DNA of 18,628 nt from an uncultured bacterium (GTDB lineage Bacteria; Hydrothermota; UBA3073; NMUJ01), in the NCBI GenBank assembly GCA_965612795.1, contig CBFDTI010000023.1, forward strand, positions 1 to 18,628, in the 5' to 3' direction. The notes under the pieces are model-generated. The model did not search any database, was not told the origin of the DNA, and saw nothing but the letters and a program-made list of their open reading frames with translations. Numbering within the stretch: position 1 is the stretch's first letter; each line of letters opens with the position of its first letter. The translations under genes were made by a program, and so were the position numbers. This document shows, piece by piece, positions 3,883 through 18,076 of this stretch.

Positions 3883-4848
3883 ATGAAATTAGGGGTGAGT
3901 TATTTCGGAAATAAAGATATCGATTGTGTACACAGACATATGGAAGATATAAAAGGAGCGGGGTTTGACTTCGTTGTACTCACATACTCGGAAAACGATC
4001 ACGAATATTATGAGGGTACATTTGACAAGATCGTGAAGGTAGCACAGGGGGTTGGCTTAGAAGTATATCTCGACCCATGGGGGGTAGGTGGCGTATTTGG
4101 TGGTGAAGCCTATTCGTATCTCGTGATGAAAAACGTACACGAACGTCAGATATCATCCAGCGGCAAGATATTGCCAGCATTATGTTTCAACTCCACCGAG
4201 CTACGTACTTATATACAGAAATGGATACAATCAGCACAGAAGATAGGGGTTGACGGCATATTTTGGGACGAACCTCACTTCTATCATGTAGATAAGGGAT
4301 GGGCCTGTTGCTGTCAGATATGTAGGGAAGAGTTTCGCAACCGCATGGGGTTTGAAATGCCGCGTCAACTTACGGCTGAAGTACGCGAGTTCCGTATTGA
4401 GATGCTGTTGGACTTCATAACTTATATTACCAAAACTTCCAAGGAGGCTGGACTAAAAACGATGTTGTGCTTGATGCCGGGTGAAGATATCGATTGGGAT
4501 AAAGTTGGTCGTATGACATGGATTGATGTGATATCCACCGATCCATATTGGTTATGGGCACGTGGTGATTATCGTGAACATGTTAGGTTCTGGGCCAAGA
4601 GGGTTTATAAGATAGCAGAGAAATTTAATAAAGAGCCATTGATATGGGTGCAAGGATTTAAAATTAAAAAAGACGAAATAGATCGTATCAGTGAAACCGT
4701 AAAGATTGCGAACGATGTGGGGATAGAGAACTTTGCGGTGTGGAGTTACAAAGCTACAAAATATATGTCAAGCATAGCATGTGAAGACCCTGATACAACA
4801 TGGCAGGCTATTTTGGATGCATTTAAATCCCTATCCTCCGACAGATAG
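3883..4848 (+). CDS. Uncharacterised glycoside hydrolase-like TIM-barrel protein (GH42-like Cys cluster)
   Basis: 321 aa. Alternating beta/alpha pattern, GLEVYLDPWG, CFNS, and DGIFWDEPH followed by CCCQIC and TDPYW. SD GAGGT upstream. The exact family is uncertain. Confidence 0.6.
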   Translation: MKLGVSYFGNKDIDCVHRHMEDIKGAGFDFVVLTYSENDHEYYEGTFDKIVKVAQGVGLEVYLDPWGVGGVFGGEAYSYLVMKNVHERQISSSGKILPALCFNSTELRTYIQKWIQSAQKIGVDGIFWDEPHFYHVDKGWACCCQICREEFRNRMGFEMPRQLTAEVREFRIEMLLDFITYITKTSKEAGLKTMLCLMPGEDIDWDKVGRMTWIDVISTDPYWLWARGDYREHVRFWAKRVYKIAEKFNKEPLIWVQGFKIKKDEIDRISETVKIANDVGIENFAVWSYKATKYMSSIACEDPDTTWQAILDAFKSLSSDR

Positions 4849-7800
4849 CGAGTGCACATATTGTAAAAACTAAGAAGATACCAGTACCTACAAGCCCATT
4901 ATAGAAGTAAAATTGTGATTGCATGTACATATAGAATGTATAACGGGTTAAAATGTATGAACCAGTGCCTATCCAATATGCGGGTAGATTATCACGCCAG
5001 AAGTATCGTACAACAAACAACACGTAAGCGATGAATGTGAGCACATATAGCGATGAGAATAAAATATCCTGCGGTGAAGCTGCTTCCCATAACGATAGAG
5101 TTGCGATGTAAACCACTATCAACATTATGGTAAGTGGCTTGTATTTTACAATGTAAAATGCGAAAAACGTTACGGTGAGTATCGGTAATAGTTTAAACAC
5201 TATATGGTTGTAAGCGAGCCATGGCAGTGTAGCACCGGGGTATAGACACGCTAAATCGGGCAATACAATCGATGGTAACTTCGGTAGAGGTAACCCCAAT
5301 CTCAAGAATAGGTTCTGTATAAGATACATAAAGAAGAACAGCGATGCACCACCAAGGATACCGTGGTAAATGGCGGATGTGAGGTATGATGTAGGGGTTT
5401 CATGTGGTAACAAATATTTCCTACTCGTATAGGCACGGAATAACGTAGCCTGTAGAGATATTGATAAAAATGTACACACCATAATGGCAACAAACTGGAT
5501 AAAGGTTCTGTTTGCTTTCGTCACAACGTATTTTGTCACACCTACAGCACTGTCGTAACCTTTGTAGAAATTAACCACATATGCATTACATACGCACATG
5601 ATGTATGTGATTGCAATAAATACGAGAAACACGAGACCAGCCCTCCACACTACCTCACGTTTTGCAATATGTAGAATAAACATGAAGGCCATTATTGCGA
5701 TGGTGAGCCACTTGATTACTAATTGCCAATAATGTTTCAACATGTGGAACTTTGAGAAACCCACAGTGGTAGCAGTTGATAGTTCATAACGGATATCGAA
5801 ATTATGTGCTTCATTGCCGATTACCTCAATATGTATGATTTTGATGAGGTGGGGTAGGTTAGATTTTGTCCATTCAAATACGTAAGCTTCATATGAGGGA
5901 TATTTGATGACCTCTTTTTTGGCTAGATGGTACCCCTTTAGTGATAGACCATGCTTATACAAATAATCCATCGCAATCCTATATGCATTTGTGAAGCTTA
6001 CGTAGGGTATAAACCGGTGTGTGGGAGGCTTGTATGTGTGTGAGTAGAGTTTGCCGTCAGCATCTAACTTGAAAATATATTGCTCATGGGTGGAGGGATT
6101 GATAAATTTTATCTCCCAATACCAATAAGGTGGTTCGGTTACATATAACTCGTTTAACCTATCGATACCCGCAGTCTGATAGATGTAACGTTCTACAGGA
6201 CCCTGTGTACGTTGTTTGAATTCCACAACCTGTATGAAACCCTCTAAATTGCAGCTTTTAGCAAGGCTATCCGATATCTTCTCCACGTCACGCCAGTTGA
6301 TGGTGACACGTACGTTAGCACCCAATATTTTATTAGGTATACGTAGTGCTATTATTGCAAATAATATGGTGATACATAAGAGGAAGCTTTTTGCAGCTCT
6401 GCCCGTATCTATATAAGGGGGTTCCTCCCAGCGTGTGATAATAGGTTCGGGTGGAATGCGTTTCCATGCTAAGTTAAGTATTGTAGTATCGTGATGAAAC
6501 TGCCCAGTACGTAAGTAATGTATGGCTGTGAATATGAGAGGATATAGAAACAGCATGGCATTTATAGGTACGAGTACGATGCTATACTTAGCATCTGAGT
6601 AGAACAGCGGCAACCCAAGTATGATGGTGATAGCAACAAACTGTGATACAACTGTGGCTAATAGGCCGAACTTCACCATTACGAAACCGAGTACCACACC
6701 CCATATGGCTATCGTCACCCCGTAAAGATAAGGTGGCGATTGTGGTAGTAACGAGAAACTAAACCCCGACAGTAATGATATGACACAGATAGCAGGTAAC
6801 AGCCTAATCTTGCTATTTAGCCATGATATACCATATAGTCTGAATAGTGACTCATTAAGCAACGCAAACGTCAATGCGGGTAGGAAAATGAGATATGGTA
6901 GCTTCAGGTTATAAGTTATACGTACTGGTAATATCAGAGGTAACCATAACCCTTTTCTTGTTAAGATAGTATGGAGCAATGCAAGCCACCCAAGTTGTAG
7001 CAACCCTACACAGTAACCAATAAGTATAGAATAGAGGAACTCACGCGTTCTTATTCCAGTTGGCGTGGGTAAAAAATTGGGGTATAACTTGAAAGGGGCA
7101 ACTATCGTATAGTGATGTCTACCTACAAGTAAAGCCAAGCTTATAACCACAGAGATAGCTAGTGAAATTAATAGATTCTGACGAAGATTGTGTGTACCAA
7201 ACATGCTGTAAGTGGCGGCAAATACCAGTACAGAGGTTACGGTAAAGCATAGTATGAGTTCATAAATGGATATCCAACCCCACCTCATAAAAGTAACAAT
7301 ATGTATGGACAAAGGAATAAGGATAAGCAGAAATATAGCAAAAGCCGCTATATAGGTTAACCCTAACCTACAAAAGTAGTTACGCTTGTAGTTTACGTAG
7401 GTATCGGCTGGGAGGATAAACCCTATCCGTATGCTTTTGAGTCCATCATCTGTGAGATGTGCAACTATACCATATCTTGCACCTTTAACGTTGAAGTCAG
7501 CTTCGTACCATAATAGTTGTAAATACGATGGGCCCAACTTCTCCGCTCCAGAATAAACAAATTTGTCGATCTCCTCACCCAATATCTTATGAAGCAGAGA
7601 GACAACAAACTGCTGTGCTCTACGTGTATCTAAAGGTTGAGCGTAAGGTAGTGCCCGCCTTTTGTGAAACCCGAGTAATGTTAAGCTTTCCGGGTGTAGC
7701 TCTACAGTTAGGGTGTCCCCAGTATTCGGTACGTAAAAAGTTACACGCCAACACCAAAGTGATTTGCCAGCCTCTATAATATCACGCAGGGTATCGGATA

Positions 7801-8044
7801 CGTTACGTAAAAGAAAGTATTTGGCAATCTCGTTTTCAGCGAATTCGATTTCTATATGGTAATGTGTGAGCGTATCGCCTAAGATACGATAAAGGTAGGA
7901 TTTGGCAGCTATCTCTATCTTATGGAGATTGGTTTGGATTTTTAGGTAGCTTTCCGGGCATGTGGTTTGGGTTACTCTAACAAAACATAGTAGGGCAAAT
8001 ATCGCGAAGAATCCACACAATGCGAGAACAAGCCGATTACGCAT
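4823..8044 (-). CDS. Large polytopic membrane protein with a degenerate CPBP (Abi/CAAX protease) domain and two related soluble domains
   Basis: 1073-aa open frame with many hydrophobic segments. ALLNESLFRLYGI resembles the CPBP EExxFR motif, followed by PQSPPYLYG. Confidence 0.65.
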   Translation of the reverse strand: MRNRLVLALCGFFAIFALLCFVRVTQTTCPESYLKIQTNLHKIEIAAKSYLYRILGDTLTHYHIEIEFAENEIAKYFLLRNVSDTLRDIIEAGKSLWCWRVTFYVPNTGDTLTVELHPESLTLLGFHKRRALPYAQPLDTRRAQQFVVSLLHKILGEEIDKFVYSGAEKLGPSYLQLLWYEADFNVKGARYGIVAHLTDDGLKSIRIGFILPADTYVNYKRNYFCRLGLTYIAAFAIFLLILIPLSIHIVTFMRWGWISIYELILCFTVTSVLVFAATYSMFGTHNLRQNLLISLAISVVISLALLVGRHHYTIVAPFKLYPNFLPTPTGIRTREFLYSILIGYCVGLLQLGWLALLHTILTRKGLWLPLILPVRITYNLKLPYLIFLPALTFALLNESLFRLYGISWLNSKIRLLPAICVISLLSGFSFSLLPQSPPYLYGVTIAIWGVVLGFVMVKFGLLATVVSQFVAITIILGLPLFYSDAKYSIVLVPINAMLFLYPLIFTAIHYLRTGQFHHDTTILNLAWKRIPPEPIITRWEEPPYIDTGRAAKSFLLCITILFAIIALRIPNKILGANVRVTINWRDVEKISDSLAKSCNLEGFIQVVEFKQRTQGPVERYIYQTAGIDRLNELYVTEPPYWYWEIKFINPSTHEQYIFKLDADGKLYSHTYKPPTHRFIPYVSFTNAYRIAMDYLYKHGLSLKGYHLAKKEVIKYPSYEAYVFEWTKSNLPHLIKIIHIEVIGNEAHNFDIRYELSTATTVGFSKFHMLKHYWQLVIKWLTIAIMAFMFILHIAKREVVWRAGLVFLVFIAITYIMCVCNAYVVNFYKGYDSAVGVTKYVVTKANRTFIQFVAIMVCTFLSISLQATLFRAYTSRKYLLPHETPTSYLTSAIYHGILGGASLFFFMYLIQNLFLRLGLPLPKLPSIVLPDLACLYPGATLPWLAYNHIVFKLLPILTVTFFAFYIVKYKPLTIMLIVVYIATLSLWEAASPQDILFSSLYVLTFIAYVLFVVRYFWRDNLPAYWIGTGSYILTRYTFYMYMQSQFYFYNGLVGTGIFLVFTICALAICRRIGI

Positions 8045-11262: not shown

Positions 11263-14121
<2,859 letters not shown>

Positions 14122-14131
14122 CAGAAATTAA

Positions 14132-14158
14132 GTGATAAGAATAATCGGCGATTGTCAA
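14132..14158 (-). promoter_or_regulatory. Putative promoter of the yhhQ-tgt-MFS operon
   Basis: Minus-strand TTGACA at 14158-14153 and a weak -10 (TATCAC) at 14137-14132. No SD before the ATG. Confidence 0.4.
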
Positions 14159-14229
14159 CTTAAGAGATGACCAACGTTTAACCCATAACATACGATATGT
14201 AAAATACACCTACAATACCCCCCCCAATA

Positions 14230-16483: not shown

Positions 16484-17173
16484 ATGCGGATGATAGGACT
16501 TTTAGGTGGGCTCTCCTGGCATTCGACGCTTGAGTACTATCGGATCATAAACGACGAGATAGCCAAGAGGTTGGGAAGTAAGCATTCTGCACGCATTATA
16601 CTGTACAGCTTCGATTTCAACGAAATACATGAGCTACAGAGTAAGGGTGATTGGCGTACGATTGTAGATAAGTTCGTACATGCAGGTAAAGTGCTTGAGC
16701 ATGCAGGTGCAGAGGCCATCCTCATATGTGCTAACACAATGCATAAGGTAGCGGATGAAGTACAATCTGGGTTACGGGTAAAGCTTCTACACATATGTGA
16801 CGCAACAGCGAAGGCGATAAAGAGCAAAGGGTTGAGTAAGGTTGGCCTGCTGGGTACCAAGACCACAATGACGGATCCATTCTACAAGGAAAGGCTCGAA
16901 CGCCATGGTATAGCTGTGATCGTACCCAGCAATAACGATATTGTAACAGTAGATTCAATAATATTCGATGAATTAGTGAAGGGTATCATCAGTGACACAG
17001 CTCGTAGCAGGATGGTGCAAATCATCAACAACCTGGTAGAGGAGGGTGCGGAAGGCATCATACTGGGGTGTACTGAACTACCTCTGCTTATAGAGCAACA
17101 ACATGTATCGGTACCGTTGTTCGATACCCTACGGTTGCATGCGATGAGTGCGGTCAAATTTGCATTAGCATGA
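16484..17173 (+). CDS. Aspartate/glutamate racemase family protein (YgeA/RacX-like)
   Basis: IGLLGGLSWHST.EYYR, CANTMH, GLLGTKTTM and ILGCTELP. Both catalytic Cys residues are present. Confidence 0.92.
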   Translation: MRMIGLLGGLSWHSTLEYYRIINDEIAKRLGSKHSARIILYSFDFNEIHELQSKGDWRTIVDKFVHAGKVLEHAGAEAILICANTMHKVADEVQSGLRVKLLHICDATAKAIKSKGLSKVGLLGTKTTMTDPFYKERLERHGIAVIVPSNNDIVTVDSIIFDELVKGIISDTARSRMVQIINNLVEEGAEGIILGCTELPLLIEQQHVSVPLFDTLRLHAMSAVKFALA

Positions 17174-17269: not shown

Positions 17270-18076
17270 ATGGAGATCGTTAACGATTTACCGGAAGAAC
17301 TGTACCTAGAGTATGATGAGTTCCTTGCATACGTAGGGATTTATGATGATAAGCTACGTATAGAGCGATATAAGAAGTTTATTAAGAAACTGAACCCACG
17401 GGATAAGGTTTGCGTTGAAGCAGGTGCTGGGTATGGTGTATTTGCTGAGTTTATGTTGAAGCTGGGTGCAGGTAAGGTCTACGTGGTGGAAAGGAACAGG
17501 TTTATGCTCAACATTCTACGTGAGAAGTTTGGCAACAACTCACGTGTGGAGATAATAGGCTGCGATATAAAAGAGTTCGTACCAGAAGATGATATATATC
17601 TATTGGTGCACGATTTCTACGGCGCTATGTTGTACGATGAGGATCTACATGCGCTTGAGGAGCTTAAATTTAAGCCAGGTAATGTTTTGCCGGATGCAGG
17701 TAGGTTGATGGTCGCGGTTGTAAATGCGGATAATTACCTGGATACAGCAGTAAACCGAAAAGTTTTGGAGCAACTCAAAGGGGTATTGGTGACGGATCTA
17801 TTTGCTGTTAAAAATACTTTGGTTAAACAGCTGAAAGGGGTTGAAGTTTTACACTGGCATTATGAAAGTGGACTCAGAGGTGGTAGATTGGATATATCAA
17901 ACTATGAGGGTGACCTGCTTGTCTTCTGGGTGGAACTCGTACATGGAGGGCAACTTCTATGTCGTGCTGGTGAATGCTTCAACTGGCCACTTGTATGGAC
18001 ACCACGTGCAGGTGATGTGTTTGAGATAGGGTTTACAAAACGTGGAGCTGCACCATCTTTTAAGTGGATAAAATAG
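17270..18076 (+). CDS. Class I SAM-dependent methyltransferase, PRMT-like
   Basis: DKVCVEAGAGYG (motif I), GAGKVYVVE (post-I) and IIGCDI. Also carries PRMT-like DxxR, double-acid loop and KPG..LP motifs. Confidence 0.75.
   Translation: MEIVNDLPEELYLEYDEFLAYVGIYDDKLRIERYKKFIKKLNPRDKVCVEAGAGYGVFAEFMLKLGAGKVYVVERNRFMLNILREKFGNNSRVEIIGCDIKEFVPEDDIYLLVHDFYGAMLYDEDLHALEELKFKPGNVLPDAGRLMVAVVNADNYLDTAVNRKVLEQLKGVLVTDLFAVKNTLVKQLKGVEVLHWHYESGLRGGRLDISNYEGDLLVFWVELVHGGQLLCRAGECFNWPLVWTPRAGDVFEIGFTKRGAAPSFKWIK

Follow-up and report, generated by a model that had tools for sequence, protein, structure and literature searches.

According to our analysis, the open reading frame at 17270-18076 of the window (the whole stretch of 18,628 nucleotides that was analysed) belongs to a new subfamily of bacterial proteins with the predicted fold of the protein arginine methyltransferases (PRMTs), which is distinct, compact and vertically inherited, has an N-W loop and is predicted to form dimers by strand swapping. 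With regard to its function, we lean towards a housekeeping enzyme that monomethylates arginine in a single conserved cellular protein or in a few such proteins; by analogy, the protein most likely functions like PRMT7. More tentatively, it may stand for an old bacterial monomethylase lineage, belonging to the housekeeping of WOR-3 and KSB1, in which a swapped N-terminal strand completes the active site and gates the entry of arginine.

The frame is a real gene under purifying selection. It encodes 268 amino acids on the plus strand with no internal stop, and the frame of the opposite (minus) strand over the same interval is riddled with stops. Relative to the copy from the same genus, 38 synonymous and 12 non-synonymous differences were counted (dN/dS 0.076; the neighboring racemase gene, used as a control, gave 0.135). 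The gene order, all on the plus strand, is Asp/Glu racemase (16484-17173), PRMT-fold gene and a VIT-domain gene (from 18105). Promoter and terminator scans around the gene yielded no signal above shuffled sequences. RNA contigs of a ~93%-identical relative (four runs, one sample) span the gene, and since their even cover extends over the surroundings too, DNA carry-over is possible.

Contigs of a ~93%-identical relative diverge on either side of a gap at 14145-14229 of the window; this break indicates that the ArsR-SdpI-esterase-racemase-methyltransferase block was joined to other DNA there, at a rearrangement point. Elsewhere in the window, the minus-strand region 4823-8044 encodes a 1,073-aa protein with many hydrophobic stretches and no Pfam match at E ≤ 0.1, which looks like a repeated architecture of membrane and soluble domains. 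The gene at 3883-4848 (plus strand) encodes a 321-aa protein with no Pfam family above cut-off; we assume that its pattern recalls a TIM-barrel glycoside hydrolase. In the minus-strand region 12384-14121, a queuosine-precursor transporter (Pfam Vut_1) lies immediately upstream of the next gene, which we take to be a tRNA-guanine transglycosylase, the two being a likely salvage pair.

All the motifs quoted in the original prediction are where it had placed them in the 268-aa protein: D27-x-x-R30 followed by Y34, motif I (DKVCVEAGAGYG, residues 45-56), the post-I stretch GAGKVYVVE (66-74), the double-E stretch (LLVHDFYGAMLYDE, 111-124) with nine positions from D115 to E124, KPGNVLP (135-141) and LLVFWVEL (216-223). 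CFNWPL (236-241), which had been described as the C-terminal end, is likewise present but is followed by 27 further residues. I24 and D27 align on M163 and D166 of CARM1, and R30 is presumably the arginine that binds the SAM carboxylate. The coordinates of the recognized parts are listed in Table 1.

Table 1. Parts of the PRMT-fold gene and their positions in the window.
Feature	Positions	Strand	Basis
Whole gene: SAM-binding Rossmann domain, short arm, shortened beta-barrel	17270..18076	+	Open reading frame, AlphaFold2 model, PRMT7 alignment, dN/dS
N-terminal segment M-(D/E)-I-x-N-x-L, residues 1-7	17270..17290	+	Conservation; predicted partner contacts
I24-Y25-D26-D27-x-x-R30...Y34	17339..17371	+	Alignment to CARM1 MMQDYVRT; conservation
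SAM motif I (residues 45-56) and post-I (66-76, E74)	17402..17497	+	Aligned to PRMT3 and CARM1
Double-E loop H114-(D/E)115...D123-E124-x-L126	17609..17647	+	Aligned with CARM1 SEPMGYMLFNE; conservation
Putative short dimerisation arm, residues ~152-190, with conserved D158 and L-x-G-V-L-V-x-x-L-F	17723..17839	+	Model, predicted interface, conservation
THW-position loop C231-x4-C236-x-N238-W239...W-T-P-R	17960..18007	+	FNW aligned on THW; conservation

Both the sequence and the structure comparisons were led by PRMTs. A phmmer search against 177,635 solved sequences gave PRMT3 (E 2e-7) and CARM1 as the best matches, and the first 41 of the best 60 were PRMTs. With a 62-row family profile, PRMT3 and CARM1 reached E 1e-18, and the 55 sequences found at E ≤ 1e-10 were PRMTs without exception. 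[quoted passage not shown] The 42 Foldseek matches listed for the AlphaFold2 model (mean pLDDT 96.2) were all PRMTs, the best being trypanosome PRMT7. When the model was compared with 48,161 representative solved chains, PRMTs occupied the top 15 places (Z 21.5 to 14.6); the best chain was 5eku of trypanosome PRMT7 (Z 21.5; 259 aligned, rmsd 3.7), whose alignment covers residues 3-268, i.e., the Rossmann domain together with the barrel. Across the PRMT7 comparisons, 256-259 of the 268 residues aligned (rmsd 3.3-3.7). The best non-PRMT chain (Z 10.6), PrmA (Z 10.3) and ErmE (Z 9.3) matched the Rossmann part only, and among the structure matches listed the two-domain fold always belonged to a PRMT or its inactive partner.

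The model predicts the whole PRMT core, including the barrel, and a SAM-binding Rossmann domain with motifs I, post-I, II and III, as in the PRMT superfamily, is recognizable in the sequence. The original prediction had proposed a minimal 268-aa PRMT-fold enzyme, to be doubted if the barrel were missing or if PrmA or an rRNA methyltransferase matched best. The barrel is present in the model, PRMTs top the structure lists ahead of PrmA and the rRNA methylases, and these PRMT-led fold and family comparisons remove both grounds for doubt. None of 62 family members matched Pfam PRMT_C at E ≤ 0.01, their barrel being too diverged. Between motif III and the loop Trp, the family has ~23 residues fewer (median 95, n = 62) than the THW-type relatives (median 118, n = 40).

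The best Pfam match, RrnaAD (E 6e-7), lies above its cut-off, and NCBIfam returned Erm and KsgA models, which would favor an RNA methyltransferase of the KsgA/Erm kind. These matches, however, are confined to the Rossmann part, and the NCBIfam ones (residues 35-104) score far under the cut-offs (26.8 versus 212 bits for Erm, 21.9 versus 171 for KsgA; PRMT5 was matched at E 0.02). ErmE, moreover, aligns over 143 residues at Z 9.3, compared with 259 residues at Z 21.5 for PRMT7, and the family is acidic (median pI 4.9; 77 of 93 members below 6.5), which argues against RNA as the substrate; this acidity is like that of an enzyme for basic substrates. We consider an RNA methyltransferase very unlikely.

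The family forms a tight group of proteins of 260-285 aa, with ~34-58% identity to the query and a sharp gap to all other sequences. A 96%-identical protein in NCBI is labelled candidate division WOR-3, which makes this phylum the likely host of the gene, and 30 full-length loci came from bins of WOR-3, KSB1, Calditrichaceae, Ignavibacteriae, Bacteroidota, Omnitrophota, Spirochaetota and Thermotogota. The gene occurs as a single copy in 42 of 272 genomes of the WOR-3 phylum (27 of 181 among the high-quality ones), where some families are complete (12/12, 6/6, 5/5) and many empty; within the KSB1 phylum, 43 of 167 genomes carry one copy each, all these counts being taken from incomplete genomes and including kin, so that they are non-independent. 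One copy (L026:8001-8819) carries an internal stop or frameshift, which points either to a mistake in the sequence of that bin or to a gene in decay.

The 23 family rows grouped in one branch (SH-aLRT 98) of a quick tree built from 143 Rossmann domains, and the rows with full type I motifs fell elsewhere. A phage set stood beside the family branch with a support of 82, a placement from a quick tree with long branches for which we claim no closeness. Searches of viral contigs for the family gave 72 pattern matches, 0 of them confirmed; PHROGs holds no family for the PRMT-fold protein, and no fused or longer forms appeared among 7,998 candidates (weak evidence). The own genome of the gene (1.42 Mb, 99.5% complete, 128 contigs) contains one full match and two Rossmann-only matches, i.e., no second PRMT-fold protein. 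No description of a WOR-3/KSB1 subfamily was found in the literature full text, which included few subscription papers.

Conservation was assessed over 151 rows of <95% identity, drawn from 191 gathered and with fragments of <240 aa excluded. R30, D123, G118 and L19 are present in 151/151, E124 and W239 in 150, N238, D27 and Y25 in 149, N5 in 144, I3 in 131 and I24 in 128 (Met in 14), and the set D/E115, D123, E124, N238, W239, D27 and R30 is jointly kept in 146 of these non-redundant relatives; G52, G54, E74 and P141 occur in 93 of 93 members. A double-E loop with two carboxylates nine residues apart and a THW-type loop with a Trp after a polar residue, both as in PRMTs, are recognizable from these residues, although the literal T-H is absent. 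The accessible part of PMC4655611 describes T-H as missing also from PRMT5 (Ser) and PRMT7 (Gln). The family signature consists of N238-W239 at the THW position, the invariant D123, the lack of YFxxY and a conserved N-terminal strand. Both C231 and C236 are found in 127 rows, neither in 20 and C236 only in 4 (n = 151); this cysteine pair before N-W is a possible disulfide or metal site.

The original prediction had read the replacement of Glu by Asp at position 115 and of THW by FNW as signs of a different substrate or methylation type. In the comparison with relatives, most of the argument for a different substrate failed. Position 115 is acidic in 151/151, with Glu in 101 and Asp, the residue of the query copy, in 50; the tree needs 12 switches, 9 of which are forced by well-supported branches, and such repeated switching marks Asp as an interchangeable variant and not as the sign of a new substrate. 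No paper on Asp at the first double-E position was found in the literature. As for FNW, F237 occurs in 2/151, and only the N and W are fixed.

The loss of the type I signature residues might also suggest a scaffold that has lost its catalytic activity, comparable to the PRMT1 prozyme of trypanosomes, and such pseudo-enzymes exist (PMC8226133, in the portion available). Against this, the SAM motifs and the pocket acids are near invariant and no second PRMT-fold partner was found in the genome; we hold a dead scaffold to be highly improbable.

The type of product can be approached through residues assigned in PRMTs. According to the accessible part of PMC4655611, YFxxY, Met163 and His415 in CARM1 go with asymmetric dimethylation, Phe327 and Ser578 in PRMT5 with symmetric dimethylation, and Gln329 in trypanosome PRMT7 with monomethylation. 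Gln at the loop position blocks both dimethylations (PMC4655611 and PMC8226133, each in part), and E181D and E181D/Q329A alter the PRMT7 product (PMC8226133, same portion). In our family, the YFxxY consensus is absent (Tyr15 in 9/151, the query copy included, and no Tyr consensus at 11), and Ile24 and Asn238 stand in place of the type I Met and His. The features of type II (PRMT5) are also lacking, given Ile24, Asn238 and a length of 268 aa without the extra domain (TIM barrel). Compared with type III, Asn rather than Gln precedes the loop Trp, and PRMT7 is the best structure match but is tied with type I chains. The lack of YFxxY, Ile for Met, Asn for His/Gln and the retention of the second Glu together suggest monomethylation by analogy; the side chains of Asn238 and D115, shorter than those of Gln and Glu, could leave space for dimethylation. 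A different methylation type, as had been suggested, is plausible, given that other residues stand in place of YFxxY, Met and His of type I throughout the family.

The enzyme is predicted to be a dimer. Two copies modelled with SAH scored 0.89, against 0.00 for the best control. In the calibration, which holds only roughly because our own alignment and a ligand were used, 20 of 30 proteins with solved pairs attained the mark, as did 1 of 23 with a solved single chain. At least 98% of contacts recurred between runs, and the partner pLDDT was at least 94; this result may in part reflect likeness to solved PRMT dimers. The predicted interface includes the arm (159-177), whose helices lie at 163-167 and 184-187 of the AlphaFold2 model, and the N-terminal helix 15-26. 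Arm-on-helix packing is the usual PRMT dimer, according to the accessible text of PMC8619983. Conservation is higher at the 44 interface positions than at the other 219 (p 0.02). Covariation was rejected as support for the dimer: just two of the 24 predicted crossing-strand pairs, 6-261 (z 4.2) and 4-242 (z 3.1), gave a notable signal, and lineage seems to drive the top pairs.

The best-placed predicted contacts run from residues 2-7, within the segment M-(D/E)-I-x-N-x-L that family members share together with the start Met, to residues 119, 120, 123, 171-175, 242 and 261-264 of the partner; the crossing strand is also predicted to touch partner residues 240-242. Residues 119 and 240 (the latter via the profile-profile alignment) are the equivalents of CARM1 Y262 and Y417, two tyrosines that touch the substrate peptide (PMC9293414, in part). 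The strand, touching such peptide-contacting positions in the model, may leave the groove too closed for a protein substrate; residues 2-7 might give the peptide groove its shape, act as its gate or obstruct it.

This crossing strand is the main reason why a small-molecule substrate stays in play. The strand and the short barrel might close the groove to a pocket for a small guanidino compound, such as free arginine, agmatine or acylated arginine, consistent with the predicted contacts of partner residues 2-7 with the pocket rim and with the shortened stretch between motif III and the loop Trp. Small-molecule guanidino N-methylases are known in Streptomyces, namely SznE (PMC12637814) and BlsL (PMC5572114), as described in the accessible parts of these papers. 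Against a small-molecule substrate, no metabolic neighbor recurs across 49 independent groups and no arginine or polyamine pathway family was found in the own (incomplete) assembly. We regard it as a minor, though appreciable, possibility.

The survey of gene neighborhoods that had been proposed for the homologs covered 3 kb around 102 loci (49 groups at 70% identity; 528 neighboring ORFs), many loci being clipped by contig ends or having 1.5-kb flanks only, and revealed no conserved neighbor. A conserved operon was rejected, since the commonest neighbor cluster was found in just 7/49 independent groups; a short-chain dehydrogenase was found in 5/49. In seven loci of one WOR-3 family (L013, L030, L053, L058, L060, L061 and L068), the upstream gene encodes a fusion of ribonuclease III and DJ-1/PfpI. 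After orthologue repeats and likely spurious frames had been dropped, 62 of the 116 adjacent ORFs were scanned; their products are a mixture of housekeeping, transport and secreted proteins, and none belongs to a peptide-synthetase or peptide-maturase family. It is quite unlikely that the enzyme tailors an arginine of a ribosomal or non-ribosomal peptide natural product encoded elsewhere in the genome: besides the lack of such genes among these neighbors, the 1.42-Mb own genome has no condensation domain, no fused form was found (a weak argument), and the single-copy inheritance is steady. In the own genome we also found no amidinotransferase/arginine deiminase, arginase/agmatinase or spermidine synthase. 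Single copy, whole-family inheritance and shifting operons suggest that the protein behaves as a housekeeping protein modifier and not as a pathway enzyme.

A housekeeping role could also belong to a fold reused for lysine, histidine or the N-terminus of a protein, e.g., as a stand-in for PrmA. The change of the THW His to Asn and the extra invariant D123 and Y25 agree with this, and PrmA (TIGR00406, E ≤ 1e-25) had no match in the own genome or in any of the 42 WOR-3 carriers. However, 37 of 43 KSB1 carriers do have a PrmA match, and PrmA replacement was rejected on this ground; in addition, 219 WOR-3 genomes lack both PrmA and the methyltransferase, and both guanidinium-binding acids and the loop Trp are retained. 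Another nucleophile is, in our view, unlikely. Within the WOR-3 phylum, PrmA was seen in 11 of 272 genomes, all of one family (f8) and none above the curated cut-off.

With respect to protein substrates, histones and RGG proteins were rejected for lack of candidates in the own genome: no histone-fold protein was found, the 5 of 1,450 crude ORFs that passed a loose filter for RG/RGG-rich proteins were all weak, and the single RRM protein has no RGG tail. A link to McsB (arginine phosphorylation) was rejected as well, since across 272 genomes the gene is found regardless of the McsB state; among the families that bear the methyltransferase, McsB is absent from f20 (0/7) and f21 (0/12), strong in f16, f18 and f25 and weak in f1 and f14, and carriers without, with strong and with weak McsB speak against a link. 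Independently of the methyltransferase, several WOR-3 families have a weak McsB or none; the McsB-like protein of the own genome (G000:C37:2475-3518, L081) matches the Pfam family at E 2e-33, compared with ~1e-60 in most relatives. A growth temperature of ~76 C was estimated from amino acids, a crude value from unfiltered ORFs that we set aside.

For the favored housekeeping monomethylase, we propose the following mechanism. A stand-alone acidic PRMT-fold protein, likely dimeric, would likely move one SAM methyl to an arginine side chain. In the model, the short arm would pack on the N-terminal helix of the partner, and residues 2-7 would line the mouth of the arginine pocket of the partner. 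By analogy with PRMT chemistry, D115 and E124 would hold and activate the guanidinium, and N238, with D27, might hydrogen-bond the other terminal nitrogen, like Q329 of trypanosome PRMT7. With neither the YFxxY tyrosines nor the PRMT5 phenylalanine, the reaction would be expected to stop at monomethylarginine.

Lysine and arginine methylation is common in bacteria by proteomics (bioRxiv 10.1101/2023.06.29.546327, in part), and the literature full text, with few subscription papers included, yielded no PRMT-fold enzyme shown to methylate the own proteins of a bacterium. The family is a small, concrete candidate writer of bacterial arginine methylation that can be expressed and assayed, and its Asn loop, Asp/Glu first acid and lack of YFxxY make it a natural experiment on PRMT product specificity. 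If the old monomethylase lineage, the more tentative reading, were true, a PRMT-fold enzyme would be writing methylarginine on the proteins of its own bacterial cell, and it would serve as a minimal model of how PRMTs set the product type.

That bacteria have PRMT relatives, and many of them, is already known, which limits the surprise. The premise that PRMTs are essentially eukaryotic does not hold: many bacterial and phage clusters share the fold, and bacterial relatives that act on peptide metabolites are in print (PMC3417536, in part). The secondary-metabolite or NRPS-embedded relatives (Aravind et al., in the accessible part of PMC3417536) are, like our family, bacterial and PRMT-folded; the WOR-3/KSB1 family differs in being stand-alone, single-copy and outside peptide-synthesis operons, and none of the 62 scanned adjacent genes showed the association with NRPS, dioxygenase or amine oxidase. 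The bacterial, archaeal and phage PRMT-fold clusters of the ESM Atlas, mostly labelled PrmA, reach TM 0.75-0.80 to the Atlas model of the query, whereas their sequences match it in the Rossmann half only (E 1e-10 or weaker), mostly have His before the Trp (31/40) and fall outside the family branch (SH-aLRT 98).

A compact phage set (230-280 aa) is similarly short and also has a PRMT-like fold. Such compact proteins are common on the viral contigs L083-L162, where 137 of 234 pattern matches were confirmed; P0131, P0044, P0082, P0141 and P0145 are members. For one model of this viral set (pLDDT 85), the Foldseek matches listed were all PRMTs, and PHROGs hardly covers the set. PrmA, the L11 lysine methyltransferase, has the class I Rossmann domain and the stand-alone housekeeping behavior in common with our family, but only its Rossmann part aligns (Z 10.3, 135 residues), no full-length TIGR00406 match with the L11-binding domain was found in the own genome, and the two coexist in the KSB1 carriers mentioned above.

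The closest known systems are the PRMTs themselves. The type I enzymes (PRMT1, PRMT3, CARM1/PRMT4, PRMT6 and PRMT8) gave the best sequence matches and have motifs I, post-I, II and III and the D-x-x-R helix in common with the family, for which an arm-mediated dimer is predicted; the family differs in the absence of YFxxY, Ile for Met, Asn for the THW His and a diverged barrel, and a Phe presumably replaces the SAM-side His of the type I enzymes. The best structure match, within 1 Z of PRMT6, PRMT1, PRMT3 and PRMT2, is the monomethylating type III enzyme PRMT7 of T. brucei (4m38, 5eku). Compared with it, our protein is 14-15% identical and ~70 residues shorter, its first acid is often Asp in the family, Ile replaces M75, and the invariant D123 and Y25, the C-x4-C before the loop and the predicted crossing strand are its own; the two share a single catalytic core, the double-E spacing and an amide before the loop Trp, Q329 there and N238 here.
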